DNA from: a virus
Lineage: Duplodnaviria; Heunggongvirae; Uroviricota; Caudoviricetes
Direction: 5' to 3' (one strand)
DNA: 11,925 nt
Virus record (IMG/VR): IMGVR_UViG_2778261461_000004
The stretch's first letter is position 1. Each line of letters starts with the position of its first letter. Under the pieces are notes generated by a model that had not been told where the DNA came from, searched no databases, and worked only from the letters and a program-made list of their open reading frames with translations. Of the stretch, positions 1 to 11,925 are shown piece after piece. The position numbers and the translations under genes were made by a program.

Positions 1-1284
1 TTACAGACTTCTGGAAGGTTGCGCAGCTCTTACAACACGCGGTTGATCTTCCGCAGCGTCTTCCAGCGCACTTAAATCACGGTCTTTCACCTCTGGCATT
101 TTCAGCGCAGAGATTAAACCAATCACTGAATATGCCATGATCATAATGGCGATCGGATACCAGGATTCCGTCATGGTGCAGAAAATACCCGCCAGGATAG
201 GACCAAAACCGGAAGCGATAAGACCACCAATTTCTTTAGAAATAGCCATCCGGGTAAAGCGGTTTTTACAGCCGAACATTTCTGCCATGGTAATGTTTTC
301 CAGAGCAAATAATCCCAGCACCGCACAGTTATGAATCACAATCAGTGCAACCATAATGGTGCTCGGGGCATAGCTTTTATCTACAATGATAGAAAGCATT
401 GGCCATGCCAGCACAATCGCGGAGGTATTCATAATAATATACGGGATCCGGCGACCAATTTTATCGGATAACCAACCAAGGAACGGAATGGTCATAAAGC
501 CGAGAATCGAACTGATCATCAATGCATCTGTTGGAATTGCTTTGTTAAACAATAACGTCTGCACTAAATAGCCTGCAAGGAAAGTCTGAATTAACCCGGA
601 GTTACCCGCCTGACCAAAACGCAGCCCTGTTGCCAGCCAGAAGGATTTGCTCTGGAACATGCTACCAGCAGGTGCAGGTTTTGCTGTCGGTTGGTTACTG
701 TCGTTAACCTTCTCAAAGACCGGGCTTTCTTTCAGATTCATACGCAACCAGATAGCAAAGACCATCACGACAACGCTCGCCAGGAACGGTATACGCCATC
801 CCCACGCCAGCAGTTCCTCTTTACTGAGAATGAAGAACATAAAGGCCCAGATTGCCGTTGCGCTCAAGGTTCCGCAGTTAGTTCCCATAGCCACAAATGA
901 GGAGATAATTCCGCGCTTACCTTTTGGCGCATATTCCGCCAGCATCGTACCGGCACCGGAAATTTCCGCACCTGCACCCAACCCCTGAATAATACGCAAC
1001 GTCACCAGCAAGATGGGTGCAAAAACACCAATCTGTGCATAGGTCGGTAACACACCAATTAAGGTGGTACAGATCCCCATCATGGTGATGGTAATAAAGA
1101 GCACTTTTTTACGCCCTATTCTGTCGCCCATTTTGCCGAAAATAAATGCTCCGACAATACGCGCCACATAACCTGCACCGTAGGTTCCCATTGCCAGAAT
1201 TAACGCCATTGCCGTTGATGATTCAGGAAAAAATATTTCATGAAACACTAACGCTGCGCCGAGCGAATATAACTGGAAATCCAT
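1..1284 (-). CDS. ydfJ: MFS transporter of the metabolite:H+ symporter (MHS) family, YdfJ-like; N-terminus appears truncated at the prophage junction
   Basis: 427-aa ORF with multiple hydrophobic segments and the MHS-type motif GDRIGRKK after the second helix. The ORF begins MDFQLYSLGAALVFHEIFFP, which corresponds to the conserved W-Y-D-F region that in paralogs such as ShiA sits about 30 residues into the protein, so the first part of TM1 seems missing. Stop codon is at 1..3. Confidence 0.85.
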   Translation of the reverse strand: MDFQLYSLGAALVFHEIFFPESSTAMALILAMGTYGAGYVARIVGAFIFGKMGDRIGRKKVLFITITMMGICTTLIGVLPTYAQIGVFAPILLVTLRIIQGLGAGAEISGAGTMLAEYAPKGKRGIISSFVAMGTNCGTLSATAIWAFMFFILSKEELLAWGWRIPFLASVVVMVFAIWLRMNLKESPVFEKVNDSNQPTAKPAPAGSMFQSKSFWLATGLRFGQAGNSGLIQTFLAGYLVQTLLFNKAIPTDALMISSILGFMTIPFLGWLSDKIGRRIPYIIMNTSAIVLAWPMLSIIVDKSYAPSTIMVALIVIHNCAVLGLFALENITMAEMFGCKNRFTRMAISKEIGGLIASGFGPILAGIFCTMTESWYPIAIMIMAYSVIGLISALKMPEVKDRDLSALEDAAEDQPRVVRAAQPSRSL

Positions 1285-1887
1285 AATTCACAGGTGTTTT
1301 TTCCCATCCTGTGGTTTCCTTGGCGTTTTCTAGGTTTTTTCAGATAGTTGCATTTTTTAAAAAGCATCCTAAGTTCGATCTCAGTGTCTATCTGGGGCCT
1401 ATTTCTGTCCCATATATGCCCCAAAAAAACTCCCCAACAGATAAGTAGTTTTTTCATGGATTTATGCGTAAAATCAAGAACGGCTGGAAATCATTCAATA
1501 CTCACACTATCGAAAAATTTACCAGCCAACCGCAGCACGTTCTTGCATAAGGCGTGTCTGCGTTTTTTCAACTATTCAGATACATCACTCCCATCACAGT
1601 CATTCCTCCGCATCAAAGGCATATAGGCTATATCACCTTGATATTTTTCTTTTTCAGATAAAAACTGTTATCTATGTATACTTTTAAACCCAATCCGTGT
1701 AGAGTCTCTGCATAAGATAGTTTGCAGTTGCCGCTTCAGCTTGCGCCATAAACCGCCTGATTTTTGCTGCCACCTGCTAGCATTCCTGTATACCTGAAAC
1801 GACAATGTTTATCTACGAACTTTAAAAACACCCAAGATAAAAATTGTCAACTATATCATATATAACACATTACTAATTCGAGGCTAT

Positions 1888-2001
1888 ATGAACAGCATAC
1901 TGATAATCACTTCTCTCCTTATCATATTCAGCATTTTTAGTCATGCCCTAATAAAATTAGGGATTGGCATATCCAATAACCCAGACAAAACCGATGTATA
2001 A
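1888..2001 (+). CDS. Hypothetical 37-aa small hydrophobic protein ([37 protein letters not shown])
   Basis: ATG at 1888 preceded by GAGG (cgaggctatATG), TAA at 1999..2001. One predicted transmembrane helix followed by a polar tail. Too short for the supplied ORF track. It ends 68 nt upstream of ydfK. No homology evidence available. Confidence 0.25.
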
Positions 2002-2069
2002 GTCAACATATCCTGAATCAGACATACAATATCGCAATGAAAATCAATAATATTTTAAGGAATATCTTC

Positions 2070-2303
2070 ATGAAATCAAAAGACACCCTAAAGTGGTTCC
2101 CTGCGCAGCTTCCTGAAGTAAGAATTATCCTAGGGGATGCTGTAGTGGAAGTAGCAAAACAGGGAAGACCTATTAATACCAGAACATTGCTTGATTACAT
2201 TGAAGGAAACATAAAGAAAAAATCATGGCTGGATAACAAAGAATTATTACAAACAGCGATATCAGTTCTTAAAGACAACCAAAATTTAAATGGTAAAATG
2301 TAA
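2070..2303 (+). CDS. ydfK: Cold-shock-induced small protein YdfK/YnaE family
   Basis: Translation MKSKDTLKWFPAQLPEVRIILGDAVVEVAKQGRPINTRTLLDYIEGNIKKKSWLDNKELLQTAISVLKDNQNLNGKM matches my recollection of YdfK (77 aa). AAGGAA lies 8 nt upstream of the ATG at 2070. The track's 2037 start has no comparable RBS. Confidence 0.8.
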   Translation: MKSKDTLKWFPAQLPEVRIILGDAVVEVAKQGRPINTRTLLDYIEGNIKKKSWLDNKELLQTAISVLKDNQNLNGKM

Positions 2304-2620
2304 TATAATAAACTTACTTTTTTATCATTTTTCCACTTTAACAACATTTTGCTCCACTTTTCCACGTCCAAACAACTTGAAATCTGGTTAAAATAACACG
2401 CAACACTATTCTTCTTCCTTGAGCCCGCCCGGAACTCGAAAAACAAACCAAGTTAAAGCCATTTTTCACAAAATCGATTTTGGGTCTCACCAAAAATTAC
2501 GGGGTTGCATACGCATTCGTTTATTTTCGAACGTGTACATACAAATATGCACAAAAATAATCATAATTATTTTCTGAGATGCATTATGATATGAACACCA
2601 ATTTCGAATAGAGTCTCACT

Positions 2621-3211
2621 ATGTCTCGAATTTTTGCTTACTGTCGGATATCAACGCTGGATCAGACCACCGAAAATCAACGCCGGGAAATCGAAAGTGC
2701 AGGTTTTAAAATCAAACCTCAGCAAATAATCGAAGAACACATTAGCGGCTCAGCAGCAACCAGTGAGCGTCCTGGTTTTAACCGGTTGCTTGCTCGCCTG
2801 AAATGTGGTGATCAATTGATTGTGACAAAACTGGATCGCCTTGGTTGTAATGCAATGGATATCAGGAAAACAGTGGAACAACTGACCGAAACAGGTATCA
2901 GAGTGCATTGCTTAGCATTGGGTGGCATTGACCTGACCAGTCCAACAGGAAAAATGATGATGCAAGTAATTTCAGCAGTCGCTGAATTTGAACGAGACCT
3001 TTTACTTGAACGCACTCATTCCGGGATAGTAAGAGCCCGCGGCGCAGGGAAACGTTTTGGTCGACCACCTGTGTTAAATGAAGAACAGAAACAGGTGGTA
3101 TTCGAACGAATTAAGTCAGGTGTAAGTATAAGTGCCATTGCCCGGGAATTCAAAACCTCGCGGCAAACCATTTTAAGAGCCAAAGCAAAACTTCAGACAC
3201 CTGACATATAA
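2621..3211 (+). CDS. pinQ: Site-specific DNA invertase, serine recombinase (Pin/Gin/Hin/Cin family)
   Basis: 196-aa ORF with the resolvase N-terminal catalytic motif ([15 protein letters not shown], catalytic Ser in CRIST) and a C-terminal HTH ([22 protein letters not shown]). Size and position next to a tail-fibre assembly gene match Pin-type invertases. Confidence 0.9.
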
Positions 3212-3308
3212 AAAATAATCTCGGTGTGAGATGCTTTACGTGTTCCAAGCCCCCTTCCTTGCCGTAAATGGAAAGATACATCTAATTATAGAATTTATAT
3301 GTTTTACC

Positions 3309-3745
3309 CTACGGCAGTGCTGGCCATTCAATATCCTGTGCAGTTGACGTATCAACACGGTTCAGCAATACCCGATACTTTTTCCATGCTTCCAGCAACG
3401 AGATTTCTTCCTCCGTTGCAATTTCCAGATCTGCAGCATCCTGAAGCGGCGCAATATGCTCACTGGCTACCTGCATCAGGTTGTTTTTTGTTTCTTCCGC
3501 CTCCCGGATCCGGAACAGTTTTTCTGCTTCCGTATCCTTCACCCAGGCTGTGCCGTTCCACTTCTGAAACTCCCCTTCCGGCGATAACCAGGTAACATTT
3601 TCCGGTAACGGACCGAGTTCAGAAATAAATAACGCGTCGCCGGAAGCCACGTCATAGACGGTTTTTCCCCGATGATCTTCAACGAGATGCCACGATGCCT
3701 CATCACTGTTGAAAACAGCCACGAAGCCTGCCGGAATATCTGGCG
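3309..3745 (-). pseudogene. tfaQ: Tail fibre assembly protein (Tfa) remnant, 5'-truncated
   Basis: Translation from [35 protein letters not shown] to DIEWPALP matches the C-terminal roughly 140 residues of lambda-type Tfa proteins. The N-terminal ~55 residues are absent and in-frame stop codons lie immediately upstream. No ATG is available; the track's start is a GTG at 3722 that corresponds to an internal Val of intact Tfa. Confidence 0.8.
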
Positions 3746-5086
3746 GTGCAATACCCAGTCTGATTCTGTCGCCGCTCCACCACGAATCTGAATTTTCCAG
3801 GCCTCAGCCTCCTTAACAGGGTCAATCCACGGCATCACTGGTCCGGAATACACCGCGGTATACAGTGAAGAACGGTCAAGATCGCGGGGTAACCTGATAA
3901 CACCGGATGCCACAGCCTGTTTCAGCCATGCACGATACATCGGGCGGGTTACGGCACCAATAAACCAGTCCTGCAGGATCAGGTAGCCATCAGTAGACTC
4001 AACCAGTTCCTGACGCTGGGCGCTGTAAGTGCCGTTATAGTTTCGTGCCGTACTGGAAAAACTCAGACGACTGCCCGCCGCCACGGCACGCAACTGACCA
4101 TTACGAAAAGTTTCAAGGTTAGGATTGGGACGATCCGACTTCACCATTCCGATTTCTTCGCCGGGTTTCAGATCGTCGTAAATAATGCCTGGCTGAATGG
4201 TAAGCTCGCGTTCATTCTCCTTGCTGTCATTACCATCCGTTTCATAGCTCTGTCCGTCGCCTTTCCGGATGTACATCCCCAGAGCAGCGGCGATCCTTGC
4301 TGCAGTCAGCTCAGAATCTTCATACTCTTTCAGGGCGCTGAGGCGGATCAGCACACCGGACAATAAAGACGTCCCGCGCATCTGGTGCAGACGGCGAACA
4401 AATTTAAGATGCAGCATTCGCTCTGCATCCACTTCTTTGGTTTCCATCTGCCGTCCGGATACAGGACGACTTTTATACACCAGATATTTTTCGGGACGCC
4501 CCCAGTCATCAACAAACACGCCCTGATTCAGCCTGTTGCTCTCATCACTGGTCATGGGAATAAAGTCCGGCTCGAGCGCCTCCAGCCAGAAATGAACACC
4601 GGCAGAAGGCGTCAGGCTGTTTATGCGCCCGGAAACCATCTGGGCAAACACCTCACCATCGCGCAGCCAGGTACGCAGCATCAGACGTTCCAGCATCGGA
4701 CGGGTAAACTGCCCGGTGACTTCCGGACTGACAGACCATTCACTCCATCGGGTGCGTATCTCCGCTGCCAGGTCACGGGCAATGGCACCATTGCGTAATA
4801 CCGGATGTGGCTCGACAATAATCCCGTTTTTCCCCACCACCCGTTCTTCCAGCTTGTCAAATACACCAATGACCAGATCGTGGTTGTTATCAAGGTAACG
4901 GGCCTGCTCACGTAACGACACGGCCCCGTACTGGCTTAACTGGTCGGCAGTTCGGTTCTCCCGTCGGGCTTTGTGTGTCCGCGTCGTTTTTACGGCCTCA
5001 TAAGCCTGGATCACCGCTCGGGAACGCAGCCTTGCCGCTTTCCATCCTGGTGAAAAAACGCCAATCACATCATCAAGAATTGCCAT
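3746..5086 (-). pseudogene. Phage portal protein (lambda gpB-like family), 3'-truncated and read through into out-of-frame tfa sequence
   Basis: The track ORF 3539..5158 contains a portal-like sequence from MAILDDVIGVFSPGWKAARLRSRAVIQAYEAVK onward, with the ATG at 5084..5086 overlapping the gpW-like stop (TGATG). About 447 codons are portal-native, against roughly 500-540 for intact homologs. The last ~70 codons of the track ORF are tfa DNA read in another frame. Confidence 0.7.
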
Positions 5087-5298
5087 CAGAACCTCGCCAG
5101 CCGGTACCCGGGATGCCCCCGTCGTCGTGTAATCAGAGCCGCAAGGCGGCGCTCCCACTCCTGCCGCCCCTGCCGGATCTCAGATAAGTTTTCCATGGTC
5201 ATCTGCTGACCATTAAAAGTGACGGATTTTCCGTCCAGCACCGCCATTTCAGCTTCCGTATAACGCTGAATCATGGCTTCAATATCATTCTGATTCAT
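5086..5298 (-). CDS. Head-tail joining / head completion protein, gpW-like
   Basis: 70-aa protein (MNQNDIEAMIQRYTEAEMAVLDGKSVTFNGQQMTMENLSEIRQGRQEWERRLAALITRRRGHPGYRLARF) between terminase large subunit and portal, as in lambda A-W-B order. The C-terminal RRRG.PG motif resembles lambda gpW. The ATG at 5298 overlaps the TerL stop as ATGA, with GGAGG 6 nt upstream. Confidence 0.6.
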   Translation of the reverse strand: MNQNDIEAMIQRYTEAEMAVLDGKSVTFNGQQMTMENLSEIRQGRQEWERRLAALITRRRGHPGYRLARF

Positions 5299-7397
5299 AA
5301 CCATCCTCCGGAAGTCAGCCAGGGGTTAACATCGTCAGTTACTGTTTTCTTCCGTTTTTGTTTTTTAACAGGCGTGGATACCGGTTCCGGTGTGGGTGAC
5401 GGTTCGGTGCTGTCCGGGACACACTCCAGCCAGGTTTCCCGGCTCGCCCACTCCGGTGCATCCGGCCAGCGGATCTTTTCGTATCCATGCAGAATGACCA
5501 GAGCCTCGGCATACACCATCAGGTCAAAAGCTTCGTTGGCACCGCGACCCGGCTTACTCCATTTCCCGTCACTGCTCCGCTCTTCATACGTCAGTTCGTC
5601 GTAAAACCAGCTCCCCAGCCAGTCAGGGAAATGCACATAGCCGGGACCTGGCGAGTCACGCCATAACGCGTTATTCACCCGGTCTTTCAGGGCATCCGTC
5701 TGAAGAAGCCAGAGCGGTACATCACCTGCGGCCTGCGCCCGTCGGCCCGTTCGTCCGGTGTTATCAGGGAATGTACGGGTGATCAGTTTTGCGCGCCGGA
5801 TGCTGTCGCCCTTAAACAGGTAAATACGTTTACCAAGGCCATCACGACGGCAACGACGCCAGAATTTATAGGCATTATCAGTGACCCCGTCTTCACCGCC
5901 GGAGTCCACCGCCATTGCCATCAGTCGTATTTGTTGAGAAGGATCGGAGGCCAGCGGCCAGCTTTTATGAAAAACATCCGTCAGCAGGACATCCCAGTCT
6001 TCCGGATAGCTGGCCGGATCAATTCGCTGGCTCTCCCCGTCGCTGTCACCGCGCAATGACTGCGTGATGTTGTAACGATCAATAATCCAGCGTTCGCCAC
6101 GGCTGCCATAGCCCGTTACCTGAACCACAAAACGGCGATGACGTCCCGCCTGCACATCCACTGTCGCCACAAGGAAATTAACGCCATCCGGCACACTGCG
6201 GGAAGGAACTGGCTCTGCCCGCTGCTCAAGCAGTTCACTTTTTCGTTGCTCCATGCTGGCGCGGGGAAGATAAGGTAATCCCCAGTCGGTATTGATAACC
6301 GTCTTGAGTGTTTCTTCACTTCCGGTTGTCTCGTATTCCTGTTCTGCAGTAAGCAGTTTGTAAACGAGTTGCGAGAGTGTCTGGTAAGCAGCTGCCGGAC
6401 CCTCCATCCAGAATGACGCAATACGTGAACGCCTGGGATCACCATAACGACTGCCATCCGCATTGATGGATTCACCATCCCGCAACCAGACCCCACGTCC
6501 GTTCAGCTCACGTTTTTGTTCAGGCATAATCCGTCCTGAACAGAAAGGACACTGAATATAAGCCGCCTCACTTGCCAGCACGGGATCGGCAATATCACGG
6601 AAACCAGCAACCACATCGCCGCAGGGCTGAAAATACTCACCACAGTGTGGACATGGCCAGTACCAGCGACGGCGATCACCACGGTTATAGAGCGACAGGA
6701 TCCCCGTGGTTGGTGGAGCCTCATGCGGTGAAGTCCGTCGCCATTTCACATCCTTCACATCCCTGCCGGGGGAACTCTCCACCAGCGTCATACCGCTGGA
6801 CATAAATGTGGTGGTACGTTTTGAGGCAAGAGAGAAGGCATCCCCCTCGCCATCAATATCTTCCGGAAAACGGTCATAATCCGTCAGCGCGACGCATTTA
6901 TAATCTGATGAGGACATGATATTGACTGACGGCCAGCCGATTTTCAGGTAGTTGCCAGCAAGGAATGTTCTGTCATAAACGTTGTTGTCATTTTTGTTCG
7001 GACTCAGGCGACTGACCACTTCCGGGCTGACGCGAAACGTTCTGGCGAGTCGTTTTTTGGAGTGTTCGCGGGCTTTTTCCTCTGTCATCTGAATGATCAG
7101 CATATCCGCAGGATCGCAAATCACGTTGTAAATCACCCAGCCGTCAATCAGGCCGATAGTCTTGCCGGTTCGTGCCGGGCCAACAAATATCACTGCGTCG
7201 TATTCACGCGAGGCCAGGCAGTTCATAGGCTCAATAACATACGGTGCCACCAGCGGATCCCACGGGACTGAGTTCCCTGCCCCCATGGGCACCCGCATAT
7301 ACTGAGCAACGGCATCAGCAACCCGCATTCGTCTCGGTGCGCGAAGGATATAACCTGAATCGGTTCGTGCTGCCTTTGCGGTTTCCTGATTCAGCAT
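5295..7397 (-). CDS. Terminase large subunit (lambda gpA family)
   Basis: 700-aa ORF with a Walker A-like motif VGPARTGKT near the N-terminus, directly downstream of a Nu1-like small subunit. Strong RBS GGAGGAG upstream. The start overlaps the TerS stop (TAATG). Confidence 0.9.
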   Translation of the reverse strand: MLNQETAKAARTDSGYILRAPRRMRVADAVAQYMRVPMGAGNSVPWDPLVAPYVIEPMNCLASREYDAVIFVGPARTGKTIGLIDGWVIYNVICDPADMLIIQMTEEKAREHSKKRLARTFRVSPEVVSRLSPNKNDNNVYDRTFLAGNYLKIGWPSVNIMSSSDYKCVALTDYDRFPEDIDGEGDAFSLASKRTTTFMSSGMTLVESSPGRDVKDVKWRRTSPHEAPPTTGILSLYNRGDRRRWYWPCPHCGEYFQPCGDVVAGFRDIADPVLASEAAYIQCPFCSGRIMPEQKRELNGRGVWLRDGESINADGSRYGDPRRSRIASFWMEGPAAAYQTLSQLVYKLLTAEQEYETTGSEETLKTVINTDWGLPYLPRASMEQRKSELLEQRAEPVPSRSVPDGVNFLVATVDVQAGRHRRFVVQVTGYGSRGERWIIDRYNITQSLRGDSDGESQRIDPASYPEDWDVLLTDVFHKSWPLASDPSQQIRLMAMAVDSGGEDGVTDNAYKFWRRCRRDGLGKRIYLFKGDSIRRAKLITRTFPDNTGRTGRRAQAAGDVPLWLLQTDALKDRVNNALWRDSPGPGYVHFPDWLGSWFYDELTYEERSSDGKWSKPGRGANEAFDLMVYAEALVILHGYEKIRWPDAPEWASRETWLECVPDSTEPSPTPEPVSTPVKKQKRKKTVTDDVNPWLTSGGWL

Positions 7398-7891
7398 TAC
7401 TCCTCCTGCTGTAATTCCTCCTCATCATCCGCACCTGCTTCAGTCACCCGCAGGGCTATCTGATCGCGCAGATCATCAATAATGGACTGAACACGGCTCA
7501 CAGCGGCAGGCTGCAGACCGCAGTCACGTTCAAGAATATCCGGTAATGTCTCCAGCACCTGCACGACCGCTTTTGCCCAGATGGCAAACTCCCGTCTGAC
7601 ATCACTGGCCGGAATGAGTTGTGCCGTTTCCTGTTCGAACTTAAGACGCTCACGTTCAGACTGATACCAGGCTTTGCGCTCATGCGCGTCCATTTCGCCT
7701 TCTGCAACCGGCGGTGGTAATGCCAGAAATGCCGACACAATATCAACCACCCGATAAAGCTTGAGGTTGCTTTCATGCCCCCCTGCAACGGGTAGATTTT
7801 GCAGCCTTGCCGCAGCAGTCTGGCGATGTACACCTGACAATGCCGCCAGTTGACTGATATTCAGCGTCAGATTTTTTAACTCTCGATCCAT
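7397..7891 (-). CDS. nohA: Terminase small subunit, Nu1-like (NohA/NohD family)
   Basis: 164-aa ORF. The N-terminus NLTLNISQLAALSGVHRQTAAARL is HTH-like, as in Nu1-type DNA-binding small subunits. The C-terminus is acidic (EAGADDEEELQQEE). It sits about 180 bp downstream of the cos-like sequence, with GGAG upstream of the ATG. Confidence 0.8.
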   Translation of the reverse strand: MDRELKNLTLNISQLAALSGVHRQTAAARLQNLPVAGGHESNLKLYRVVDIVSAFLALPPPVAEGEMDAHERKAWYQSERERLKFEQETAQLIPASDVRREFAIWAKAVVQVLETLPDILERDCGLQPAAVSRVQSIIDDLRDQIALRVTEAGADDEEELQQEE

Positions 7892-8039
7892 ACCCGCTCC
7901 AGAATGTTTTAAACATGCATCTTGCGAACAACTTTAGGCAAACGGTGTTAGCGATGAACAAAAAACAATCAGAATCGACACCATAAAAATAAAACCACTG
8001 TAATACCAATCAATTACAGTAGTGGTGATGACGAATAAA

Positions 8040-8112
8040 ATTTCAAAAACTAGCCTTTTTCCGCGACGCTCCCGCCCCGTGGCAGGGACCCCCACTGGGA
8101 GGACCCGACAGC
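8040..8112 (-). other. Candidate cos site (cosN-like core about 8061..8082, with adjacent cosB-like sequence toward terS)
   Basis: Read on the minus strand the sequence is CCACGGGGCGGGAGCGTCGCGGAAAAAGGC...GAAATTTTATTCGTCAT. This resembles, from memory, lambda cosN (GGGCGGCGACCTCGCGGG) and the downstream GAAAATTTT and TTCGTCAT elements. Position relative to the terS start is about the same as cosN to Nu1 in lambda (~190 bp). Confidence 0.5.
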
Positions 8113-8443
8113 CTGACAACCGTGACGAGCATCTGAAACAGAGCTTTACATAATGGCATGGGGATAATTCAGAAGGACATCACAGCATGCCCACACAAAT
8201 TAGTGTGAGTGTCCTGTTTCTTACTACGCGCAGGACTGACGAGCATGAGGGGAAAATACGCGAACCGAAATGCCTTATCTTCAGAAATGCAGCCGGCATC
8301 CGAACTGGACGATATTGTAAATTCACCTAAATACGAGGCATTGCTGTAGTTGAATTGCAGTACTGTATTAGCCTTACAGTGACAGAATACGATATTGACT
8401 CTGTCACTTGTGAAATGGTCAGAATGGTTAGCAGTTATGGTGA

Positions 8444-8650
8444 TCAGTCAACCACCAGGGAATAATCCTTCGTATTCTTATCGTGCTTTACTAACGCGGC
8501 CTCAATTGCCCTGAATGCTTCCAGAGATACTTGATGTTCTATACATGCAATTACAACATCCGGGTAACCCATCGAAATGGTGCTATTAAGCATAGTTTTT
8601 ACACGAACCTGCTCCTGGGAGGGGGCATCAGTGTATTGATCTTTATGCAT
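8444..8650 (-). CDS. Hypothetical 68-aa prophage protein, possibly DUF3950 (YlcI/YnfO-like) family
   Basis: [71 protein letters not shown] with GGAG 7 nt upstream of the ATG. Family assignment is from recollection only and is uncertain. Confidence 0.55.
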
Positions 8651-8857
8651 TTTGTCGCTCCATTCGTTTGCTCTTCACTTGCGGCCAAAAATATAACGTC
8701 AAATCACTCAGCATGAAAGAGTGAAAGTTTCAGCGCGTTTCCCTTACATAATCTGTCGTTTGTATTCTCTTCAGGCATACCGGAAAGACTAGGTATTGTC
8801 ACATAACCAATACCATCGACAATCGAGATTTATATCTATTCGGTAATGTTTAAATAT

Positions 8858-8880
8858 AAAAAAACCCCGTAAAAACGAGG
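8858..8880 (-). terminator. Rho-independent terminator downstream of gnsB
   Basis: On the minus strand: stem CCUCGU / ACGGGG (with one G-U pair), a short U-rich loop, then a run of 7 U. Located 65-90 nt downstream of the gnsB stop. Confidence 0.55.
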
Positions 8881-8945
8881 TTTATGGGTAATTTGTATTG
8901 TTGAATAGCATCTGATGAGAAATTGATGCTAATACTATAAACATG

Positions 8946-9119
8946 CTAGATTAAATCAATCTTGATATCATAGCTTTCAAGACCAGTCATTTTTTCCCGT
9001 GCAGTAAACTGGATACTGGTAACTTCTTTCCCGGTCTTTTTCTTAAGCTCAATGATTTTTTTTGTTATATATTCAGAAATATCTGCTTCTGTTTTTGTTT
9101 TTAACTCTTCAATGTTCAT
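8946..9119 (-). CDS. gnsB: Gns family protein (GnsA/GnsB)
   Basis: 57-aa translation MNIEELKTKTEADISEYITKKIIELKKKTGKEVTSIQFTAREKMTGLESYDIKIDLI matches the Gns family. AAGAGGAA lies upstream of the ATG at 9119 (alternative ATG at 9122). The track's longer 88-aa start at 9212 is not supported by an RBS. Confidence 0.8.
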   Translation of the reverse strand: MNIEELKTKTEADISEYITKKIIELKKKTGKEVTSIQFTAREKMTGLESYDIKIDLI

Positions 9120-9291
9120 CATTTCCTCTTTTAGTCTGTTATGACTGTCCTGGTACACAGTAGTGTCAATTATATGGAGCAAACGTATAAAAGATAAGAT
9201 GAAACATCGCAATAATCAACATACGACGGTCTAAATTTCACACAAACAGATAAAGATGATTATCATTTATTATCAATGCATTAGAATCAAA

Positions 9292-9522
9292 TCAATTCAA
9301 GAGTCTCATTGCTGCTTCCAGAATTTCTTCTGAAGTTACATGTCGATCCGCTGCTACATAAATGACTTTATGATCTCCGGTCAGAGATGGAAACCCTGCG
9401 GCCATTACAGTAAGGTGTGTTTTTTCGCCATTTGGATATTCACGCATGATGGTGTTAACTCCAGTCATCGCTGGCACTACCACTGCTGGTTCAGAGTTAA
9501 AAAAAACTATGATTTTTTTCAT
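9292..9522 (-). CDS. Hypothetical 76-aa protein (possibly YnfN-like, by position)
   Basis: ORF MKKIIVFFNSEPAVVVPAMTGVNTIMREYPNGEKTHLTVMAAGFPSLTGDHKVIYVAADRHVTSEEILEAAMRLLN from the ATG at 9522. The track's extension to 9564 starts at a TTG inside a terminator. Weak RBS. Lies between gnsB and cspI, as ynfN does in K-12 Qin by my recollection. Confidence 0.5.
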   Translation of the reverse strand: MKKIIVFFNSEPAVVVPAMTGVNTIMREYPNGEKTHLTVMAAGFPSLTGDHKVIYVAADRHVTSEEILEAAMRLLN

Positions 9523-9565
9523 GATGTTACCGTAGTATGTGAGTATCCATCGAATAGATACCAAG

Positions 9566-9587
9566 CAAAAAAGCTCCCGAAGGAGCC
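9566..9587 (-). terminator. Rho-independent terminator with UUCG tetraloop
   Basis: On the minus strand: GGCUCC-UUCG-GGAGCU followed by UUUUUU. The plus-strand A-run makes it potentially bidirectional. About 200 nt downstream of the cspI stop. Confidence 0.6.
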
Positions 9588-9793
9588 TTCATTTTCACTT
9601 TTTTAAATCCAACGACAGACGGCTGGCATTTAAGTATTGTGAAATATTATCAAATGTAATCATCATTGATTTACAAAAGATACATTTTGCCCCGAAAGGA
9701 TTCATGTCAGAAACATCAAAAGATGATGTTCTATACTGGGAACCATGACAACACGGGCATCTAAAGTGAATATGGTTTGTAATATTGTCTACC

Positions 9794-10006
9794 TCAAAGC
9801 GCCACTACATGAACAGCGGCAGGACCTTTAGGTCCGTTCTCAATACCAAATTCAACTTCCTGATTCTCAGTTAATGTTTTGAAATCGTTGCTCTGAATTG
9901 CTGAGAAATGGACAAACACATCTTTGCTGCCATCTTTCGGCGTGATGAAACCAAAACCTTTTTCAGGGTTAAACCATTTCACTAAACCAGTCATTTTGTT
10001 AGACAT
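9794..10006 (-). CDS. cspI: Cold shock protein, CspA family
   Basis: 70-aa [73 protein letters not shown] with RNP1-like KGFGFI and RNP2-like VFVHF motifs. AAGG RBS upstream. Followed upstream by a long untranslated region, as is typical of csp genes. Confidence 0.9.
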
Positions 10007-10369
10007 AATTATTACCTTTTGAAGAAATTAGCCCTTGGGCAGAATGGTCCGAAAAAAAATATCAGAGAGAAAAACCAACAAGGAAATCTCAAGAGGTACA
10101 AATAATAAAATTATAACAATGACTGCTTCAGATAAATTTGTAACAAACCAGAACACCATTAACGCATGATTAACCACCCATAGCAAGGATTACTTTTGTA
10201 AAGAAAAACACAGCAATGAAAGAATAGCTTTATTTATTAATAATAACGTGTCATTCTGATTAAGACCTTTTATCTTACCCTTAAGATTTCAGGAATTTTG
10301 GCTCATGGAAGAGTCCTTTTTATTTAAATTTTACATTCCGCGATGTAAATGTTCCGATTTAATATTACC

Positions 10370-11393
<1,024 letters not shown>

Positions 11394-11397
<4 letters not shown>

Positions 11398-11705
11398 AGA
11401 TATTTATGATGAGGACGCTCGTGCTTATTGGCAGGATTTTCAATCTTAAAGGAGTACTGATGCTGCAGATAAGACTCAACTTTTTCTGACAATTTTTCTG
11501 CTACTTCCAGGAAGACTTGCCGGACGCTCATTCTGGCTGCTGCCTCATAAAACTCCAGCGCAGCTCCTTCAACACGGTCCATGGCGACATCCAGGCCAAA
11601 AATTTCACCGTCAAAGCGTTCTTTGTCCTGTAAGGCTACAGTTACCGTAACTTTATTCTCAAAATTACGGACTCCTTTCACAACCAGTTCATAGTCTTGA
11701 GTCAT
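11394..11705 (-). CDS. ydfR: Uncharacterised prophage protein between holin and endolysin (YdfR-like, DUF1327 by recollection)
   Basis: 103-aa ORF with strong RBS GAGGAGAG 7 nt upstream of the ATG. Sits between holin and endolysin genes, as ydfR does in K-12 Qin. Confidence 0.65.
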
Positions 11706-11709
11706 TGGA

Positions 11710-11925
11710 TTACTCTCCTCTCGCAGCCTTACGCCTGTCTTCTTTAATCTTGAAATAAAGATTTGTCAGATACGTCAGCATGCCAAATACCAGACTACCC
11801 AATACACCTATTGCCGCCCACTGTGAGGGCGTGACTTTATCGAGCAACTGTAAAAACCAGTAGCCAGCACTGCCTGCAGAGGTGCTGTAGGCGATGCCCG
11901 TTGTTAACTTATCCATGGATTTCAT
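11710..11925 (-). CDS. essQ: Class II holin, S21-type pinholin, with dual-start motif
   Basis: 71-aa [74 protein letters not shown] with two TM segments and a charged C-terminus. The Met1-Lys-Ser-Met4 start resembles the antiholin/holin dual start of phage 21 S. The ATG is the last three bases of the window, so upstream signals are not visible. Confidence 0.85.

Follow-up and report, generated by a model that had tools for sequence, protein, structure and literature searches.

What happens to a host gene when a prophage sits at its 5' end? The stretch of DNA analyzed here (the window, 11,925 nucleotides) begins with a reading frame for the transporter YdfJ that appears to start too late, followed by AT-rich DNA of phage character. 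A preliminary description of this DNA proposed that a prophage had integrated within, or had replaced, the 5' end of ydfJ, leaving a shortened ORF severed from its native upstream sequence. We asked where the junction lies, whether the missing part of ydfJ was lost or only displaced, and whether the shortened gene is likely to be expressed. The comparisons described below make us nearly certain that positions 1276-1290 are the attR (right-hand) junction of a defective Qin-type lambdoid prophage, Campbell-inserted in ydfJ. The junction is already known from the annotation of K-12 and from the literature (PMC6379469, PMC3032704, PMC8112680).

The ydfJ reading frame in the window lacks 28 codons

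The window is 100% identical to positions 1722812-1734736 of the chromosome of E. coli strain C1 (NZ_CP195942.1). Its first feature, ydfJ' (1..1284, - strand), is a 427-aa ORF that begins MDFQLYSLGAALVFHEIFFP and that, from the ORF list, RefSeq and profile starts, encodes an MHS-family MFS transporter without codons 1-28. RefSeq labels the strain C1 gene 'MHS family MFS transporter YdfJ, incomplete; missing N-terminus'. The preliminary description had placed the start of this ORF about 30 residues into the MHS family, and the family profiles bear this out. The NCBIfam ShiA (shikimate-transporter) profile is entered at position 37 by the short ORF (its residue 2) and at position 12 by intact YdfJ. 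The corresponding starts are 40 (again residue 2 of the short ORF) and 22 in the ProP profile, and 7 (residue 1 of the short ORF) and 1 in the MHS subfamily profile TIGR00883. The 427-aa ORF scores 453.5 bits against TIGR00883, above the curated cut-off of 443.45 (462.9 bits for the intact protein), and by its profile start positions it does not have the complete N-terminus and TM1 of the family. The 28 residues that it lacks contain AAVSGWLGTALEF, where the first hydrophobic segment begins. A Kyte-Doolittle scan of YdfJ gave only a soft profile. At E <= 1e-5, YdfJ had no match among PDB chains and hence no structure on which to place TM1. As far as the profiles indicate, the ORF in the window is ydfJ minus its N-terminal tail and roughly half of TM1.

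Prophage-free strains have an intact ydfJ

Window positions 1-2700 were used as a megablast query against 5,426 complete E. coli genomes. The matches fell into classes that end at 1290, at 1423 or at 1562/1566, or that are full-length. The class ending at 1290 includes GD33, Z247 and ECE313, which have no prophage at this site and carry a 1368-nt ydfJ (455 aa) in the gene order ydfI, ydfJ, rspB, rspA. Intact YdfJ, translated from GD33, begins MTIEKHERSTKDLVKAAVSGWLGTALEF and continues with MDFQLYSL. The ORF in the window is exactly 28 codons shorter and starts at Met29 of the 455-aa protein; its 1284 nucleotides are identical to those of the intact GD33 allele. In the alignment, identity between the window and the empty site stops after 1286. 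Across the breakpoint, the window reads CTGGAAATCCATAA followed by TTCACAGG, and the empty site reads CTGGAAATCCATAA followed by ATTCAAGC. None of the three prophage-free genomes has a ydfJ that begins at the methionine used in the window behind the same upstream sequence: their genes are 28 codons longer, and their upstream sequence diverges from the window from 1287 on. The gap between rspB and ydfJ in empty-site strains is only 57 nt long, which suggests that ydfJ is transcribed together with rspAB there.

The empty site is the less common state. In a search with 200 bp centred on the attB junction, counting as matches those that covered at least 80% of the query, an uninterrupted attB was found in 2,009 of the 5,426 complete genomes; about 63% are without one. 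Among the other matches, the majority are interrupted at the core (query positions 87/90 or 105). By megablast against the same genomes, 1,985 carry the Qin-type arm through ydfK and pinQ.

The att core and the two ends of the prophage

The att core (overlap/crossover) is an exact 11-bp sequence, GAAATCCATAA, at 1276..1286. Read on the - strand, as TTATGGATTTC, it includes the ATG from which the shortened ORF starts (1284-1282). It is found once in the window and is the only stretch common to attR (window), attL (locus L005, 25217-25227), attB (GD33) and attP (phages mEp460_ev081 and HannyBb). In strain C1, the copies at window 1276-1286 and L005 25217-25227 form a direct repeat, 20,129 bp apart. 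Thus the matching repeat anticipated at the other prophage end is present in the same genome. The core itself had been expected at 1285..1320, about 10 bp too far to the right.

The core lies within an extended, imperfect att, CTGGAAATCCATAATTCA, at 1273..1290. Alignment with attB and attP identifies this sequence as a hybrid attR, in which CTG is the host side and TTCA, without the extra A of attB, is the phage side. The corresponding attB is CTGGAAATCCATAAATTCA (19 bp) and attP is CTTGAAATCCATAATTCA (18 bp), with one mismatch and one indel allowed. These limits agree with the '18- or 19-bp att sequence' of prophages at ydfJ (PMC8112680, S7 Fig legend), for whose experimental definition the attP region was amplified by PCR.

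The far end of the prophage lies outside the window and could be followed in the strain C1 chromosome. The order there is ydfI, ydfJ', ynfT, ydfK, pinQ, tfa/portal remnants, terminase, lysis and cold-shock genes, xis, int, and rspB-rspA. The integrase (L005 23899-25179, 426 aa) contains Arm-DNA-bind_2 (E 1.6e-23) and Phage_integrase (E 3.9e-18) domains and is 99% identical to the integrase of phage mEp460_ev081. The excisionase gene is directly upstream of it, next to attL. Directly after int, the chromosome reads CATGACTCTTGAAATCCATAAATTCAAGCGCAG and goes on with the 84 nt that ydfJ' lacks and then with the spacer to rspB. The ydfJ fragment translates to MTIEKHERSTKDLVKAAVSGWLGTALEFMDFKSHAC, which is exactly YnfP (b4534) of K-12, an entry in a survey of small proteins (PMC6001520). 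In the 36-aa ynfP ORF, the first 28 codons of ydfJ are fused to 5 phage codons.

In the free phages mEp460_ev081 and HannyBb, int, the P arm, the core and the P' arm are unbroken and read CTCTTGAAATCCATAATTCACAGGTG. Their attP equals the left half of attL plus the right half of attR. Likewise, the attB of GD33, Z247 and ECE313 is obtained when the host-side half of attL is joined to that of attR at a single core. Together, attL and attR rebuild both parental sites exactly. The sequences demonstrate the junction, the core, attB, attP, attL, the integrase and the absence of a deletion, and nothing that we found contradicts the junction.

Two other accounts of the shortened ORF must be weighed against these findings. 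One holds that there is no truncation: the methionine at 1284 would be the real start of ydfJ, the longer ORF elsewhere an extension made by annotators, and the AT-rich DNA an ordinary promoter region. ATG is indeed the first codon of the ORF, and the K-12 RefSeq record treats the ORF as an ordinary CDS. However, the family profiles also cover the extra 28 residues (TIGR00883 from 1, ShiA from 12), and in every occupied genome that we inspected the short form carries the PGAP label 'missing N-terminus'. Moreover, the sequence upstream of 1286 is wholly different in occupied and empty strains, and in occupied strains it is phage attP DNA. The empty-site alignment, the intact translation, attP and the profile starts refute this account, and its probability is negligible. 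The other account is that the 5' end of ydfJ was replaced or deleted, by illegitimate recombination or by a deletion after integration. The prophage is clearly decayed, with an 18-kb internal deletion (see below), and further deletions would be plausible. But the second copy of the core, at the other end, is followed immediately by the missing 84 nt in unchanged form, and attL and attR reconstruct attB and attP exactly. With the 5' fragment present next to rspB, replacement or deletion is refuted and retains almost no probability. Thus integration within the 5' end of ydfJ, as the preliminary description had it, is upheld, and the alternative wording that the end had been 'replaced' is not, since the 84-nt fragment survives as part of the ynfP ORF.

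Several features in and around the att sites deserve mention. The core has a variant, GAAGTCCATAA, in strain A0 34/86 (L014), a synonymous GAT>GAC change at Asp30. An inverted repeat, CACAGG(N14)CCTGTG, adjoins the core on the phage side (1289-1314) and is the first hairpin in the fold; it is kept, with substitutions, in other ydfJ prophages. It could be a site for Int or an accessory protein, or it could have arisen by chance. In phage mEp460_ev081 (L007), the 3' end of int, 127 bp upstream of the core and its flank, contains a 21-nt sequence that is 86% identical to them (2862-2882 and 2989-3009; TGAAAACAATAATGCACAGGT vs TGAAATCCATAATTCACAGGT). This core-like sequence could be a secondary site or a chance match. 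A search of attP for repeats that might be Int arm-type sites found short two-copy families only, possibly chance.

The phage arm and the decay of the prophage

The expectation of AT-rich, phage-like DNA upstream of the ORF was borne out. GC content drops from 0.43-0.52 within ydfJ to 0.31-0.39 across 1200-2400, and positions 1287-1900 are, over their whole length, 98-99% identical to the free lambdoid phages mEp460_ev081, PhiR42_1, HannyBb and Tritos, in which this sequence comes directly after int and the core. Phage alignments delimit a P' arm of attP that is specific to phages of the ydfJ site (1287..1466): phages of other sites (2H10, Turner and Kati) do not match until about 1467 or 1512, and other prophages at the same site have the P' arm in common up to 1423 or 1562/1566. 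The attR arm (1287-1566) is a mosaic across loci L003, L010 and L012, with matches in non-Qin prophages of this site that extend only to 1423 in O103 RM8385 and to 1562/1566 in O157:H7 and Res13. Because the arm next to attR is mosaic, the int/att module is exchanged between lambdoid phages that otherwise differ. The O103 RM8385 prophage carries nleC, and a DinI-like gene comes next after the shared arm.

The distal part of the arm is of wider distribution. Positions 1461..1566 are 87.8% identical to HK97 20943-21048, a segment just downstream of the annotated sib retroregulation site of HK97 that barely overlaps sib. This segment is a common lambdoid b-region module. We considered a sib-like hairpin or terminator in the phage arm and rejected it, as the folds of 1287-1520 (+; z = -0.34) and 1240-1520 (-; z = -0.75) were no better than those of shuffled sequences.

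The first prophage gene is ynfT (1888..2001, +), annotated in the RefSeq entry of the identical record, which encodes a small protein of the YnaM/YnfT family. Its peptide is listed in PMC6001520, in a table that gives it as identical to YnaM of the Rac prophage; ynfT/ynaM is a small-protein gene duplicated in two different K-12 prophages. Next come ydfK (2070..2303, +; RefSeq), a cold-shock-induced prophage gene, and pinQ (2621..3211, +; ORF list and annotation), the serine DNA invertase of the prophage. No Rfam family matched window 1-3342. Beyond it, IS009 (RF02111) matches at 3343-3541 (-) with 220.9 bits against a gathering score of 117, inside the tail-fibre-assembly remnant. The cspA thermoregulator (RF01766) matches at 9767-10152 (-) with 112.8 bits and covers the 5' UTR and the start of cspI (ORF 9794..10006).

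The decay of the prophage is evident from a deletion joint at 3752-3753, with a 2-bp overlap. The complete prophage of strain KE58 contains 18,020 bp (L004 20402-38421) that are absent here; they begin at the portal C-terminus, span the head, tail and tail-fibre genes and end at the N-terminus of tfa. The joint created an artificial fused ORF at 3539..5158.

Relationship to Qin and to other elements at ydfJ

Among the closest known elements is the Qin prophage of K-12. In the MG1655 RefSeq record, 'cryptic prophage Qin' occupies 1632277..1652745, and its first base corresponds to window 1276. Qin is flanked by ydfJ (b1543, the same 1284-nt ORF) at one end and by ynfP (b4534)/rspB at the other. 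The two elements share the integration site, the core, the first prophage base and the truncated ydfJ, which differs by 1 synonymous nucleotide. They also share the right arm ynfT-ydfK-pinQ-tfaQ (99.3% identical over window 1-3753) and the lysis/cold-shock module gnsB-cspI-rzpQ-rrrQ-essQ (96.5% identical over window 8941-11925). In contrast, the terminase genes and portal remnant of window 3754-8940 are missing from K-12 Qin, where stfQ/nohA/ynfO/ydfO take their place. In addition, intQ of K-12 is a pseudogene disrupted by IS2, whereas the integrase of strain C1 is full length. Judging from this pattern of identity, the element in the window is a differently decayed relative of K-12 Qin and not the K-12 element itself.

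The active form of the integrated element is represented by the free temperate phages mEp460_ev081, HannyBb, Tritos and PhiR42_1. These phages have the matching attP, a 99%-identical integrase, the excisionase and the ynfT/ydfK/pin module. Their genomes are complete (45-49 kb), whereas the strain C1 prophage is about 20.1 kb and is missing 18 kb of head and tail genes. The PPydfJ prophages of STEC and EPEC (Nakamura et al. 2021, PMC8112680) likewise have their attB in ydfJ, and the O157:H7 and O103 genomes that we examined have the same junction sequence as the window. They differ in carrying T3SS effector loci such as nleC, in having a DinI-like gene beside attR and in often forming tandem clusters, and their P' arm is common with the window only up to 1423-1566.

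The site itself has been described before. Qin was placed at the 5' end of ydfJ, with loss of the promoter and of 28 N-terminal codons (PMC6379469), and ydfJ was listed as a prophage integration site, the site of Qin in E. coli W, K-12, B and Crooks (PMC3032704). Other lambdoid elements of K-12, Rac at ttcA and e14 at icd, also entered coding sequences by the Campbell mechanism; e14 duplicates the 3' end of icd, and Rac alters the N-terminus of TtcA (PMC6379469). Unlike these cases, the phage arm at ydfJ provides a stop codon and no replacement N-terminus, and the result is plain truncation.

Is the truncated ydfJ expressed or functional?

A TGA stop from the phage arm (1288..1290, -) is in frame, two codons upstream of the ATG. 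When the 60 nt upstream are translated in frame they end in KKHL*I before the methionine; the phage arm contributes TGA-ATT. The in-frame TGA at 1290-1288 rules out an N-terminal extension into phage DNA. No Shine-Dalgarno-like motif is present at a usable distance in the 20 nt that precede the ATG (GGGAAAAAACACCTGTGAATT), and within 15 nt of it there is no AGGAGG-like motif. A consensus scan of the - strand from 1285 to 2051 found no sigma-70-like site. The scan is crude, and weak, non-sigma-70 or read-through transcription may escape it; overall it gave 8 sites against 6.9 expected from shuffled sequences, no excess. Because the phage arm has no Shine-Dalgarno sequence or promoter-like site, the truncated ydfJ is probably a silent or very weakly expressed remnant, and we infer that it has lost its transport function.

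Two hexamer pairs have been reported as constitutive RpoD promoters of the 'ydfI / ydfK' spacer (PMC3946193), and both map inside the ydfJ coding sequence. Neither qualifies as a promoter of ydfJ'. ATGCCA-17-TTTAAG (71-99, -) is at the 3' end of ydfJ, faces ydfI and could serve ydfI only. TTCCCA-16-GATAAT (882-909, +) is antisense to ydfJ.

A contrary possibility is that the shortened YdfJ is still made and useful, through read-through of the late operon or a weak promoter in the phage arm, and that the insertion rewires the transporter. We regard this as unlikely. Consistent with such a role, the 427-codon ORF is uninterrupted in all 10 of the occupied strains sampled, with a pN/pS of 0.02. 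Genes from essD through the portal and tfa remnants lie upstream on the same (-) strand, and antiterminated late transcription could reach ydfJ'-ydfI. That ydfJ is still entered as a CDS, 'putative transporter', in the RefSeq record of K-12 counts against a dead remnant. In addition, one preprint includes ydfJ among the genes differentially expressed after DicC induction in K-12, and some ydfJ transcript must therefore be present there. However, roughly half of TM1 and the conserved segment preceding the E-x-x-D-F motif are absent, and production of the protein would have to contend with the missing Shine-Dalgarno sequence, the stop codon two codons upstream and a - strand without a promoter-like site from 1285 to 2051. 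The pN/pS of empty-site strains (0.015) is the same as that of occupied strains in this small sample, in which the polymorphism mostly predates the insertions. An intact ORF and a low pN/pS are explained equally well by recent, repeated insertions of different phages, with different prophages in different lineages, into old polymorphism. The ydfJ' allele of O157:H7 has the substitutions M237I and L289P, possibly a sign of relaxed constraint there.

Less probable still is that the ydfJ insertion is a reversible genetic switch or, in a related version, that the 427-aa remnant is itself kept by selection. Strain C1 has lost the head and tail genes of the prophage but keeps an intact int and xis. 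On excision, a full-length ydfJ would be rebuilt precisely behind rspAB, and with it the rspA-rspB-ydfJ-ydfI string. A switch of this kind would resemble the 'active lysogeny' described at comK in Listeria. The undecayed ORF in 10 of 10 lysogens and the occupancy of about 63% may be compatible with either version. We continue to favor a truncated gene that is silent or nearly so.

Integration model and implications

In the integration event, the lambda-type tyrosine integrase of the phage brought together attP (P arm, GAAATCCATAA, P' arm) and the same 11 bp of ydfJ, at codons 29-31. Recombination at the shared 11 bp accounts for the duplicated core at the two prophage ends. The insertion splits the rspA-rspB-ydfJ-ydfI gene string in two: codons 1-28 remain beside rspB at the far end, and codons 29-455 remain beside ydfI in the window. 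The truncated ydfJ is cut off from its upstream operon context, with 20 kb now between rspB and ydfJ'. A 427-codon, ATG-initiated ORF survives only by accident, because the core holds ATGGATTTC (Met29-Asp-Phe). Precise excision would restore ydfJ.

Few hotspots of lambdoid integration in E. coli are as busy as ydfJ, which in STEC is occupied by effector-carrying prophages. Both points are already documented; the latter, including prophage clusters at ydfJ, comes from the work on STEC cited above (PMC8112680). Beyond correct annotation, the importance of the junction is therefore small. For annotation, the consequence is that the 427-aa 'YdfJ' of K-12-like genomes, which serves as a reference sequence for this transporter, is a prophage-truncated form. 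The native YdfJ is a protein of 455 aa, encoded directly downstream of rspAB, and an empty-site strain is advisable for studies of YdfJ transport or of the rspAB-ydfJ-ydfI cluster.
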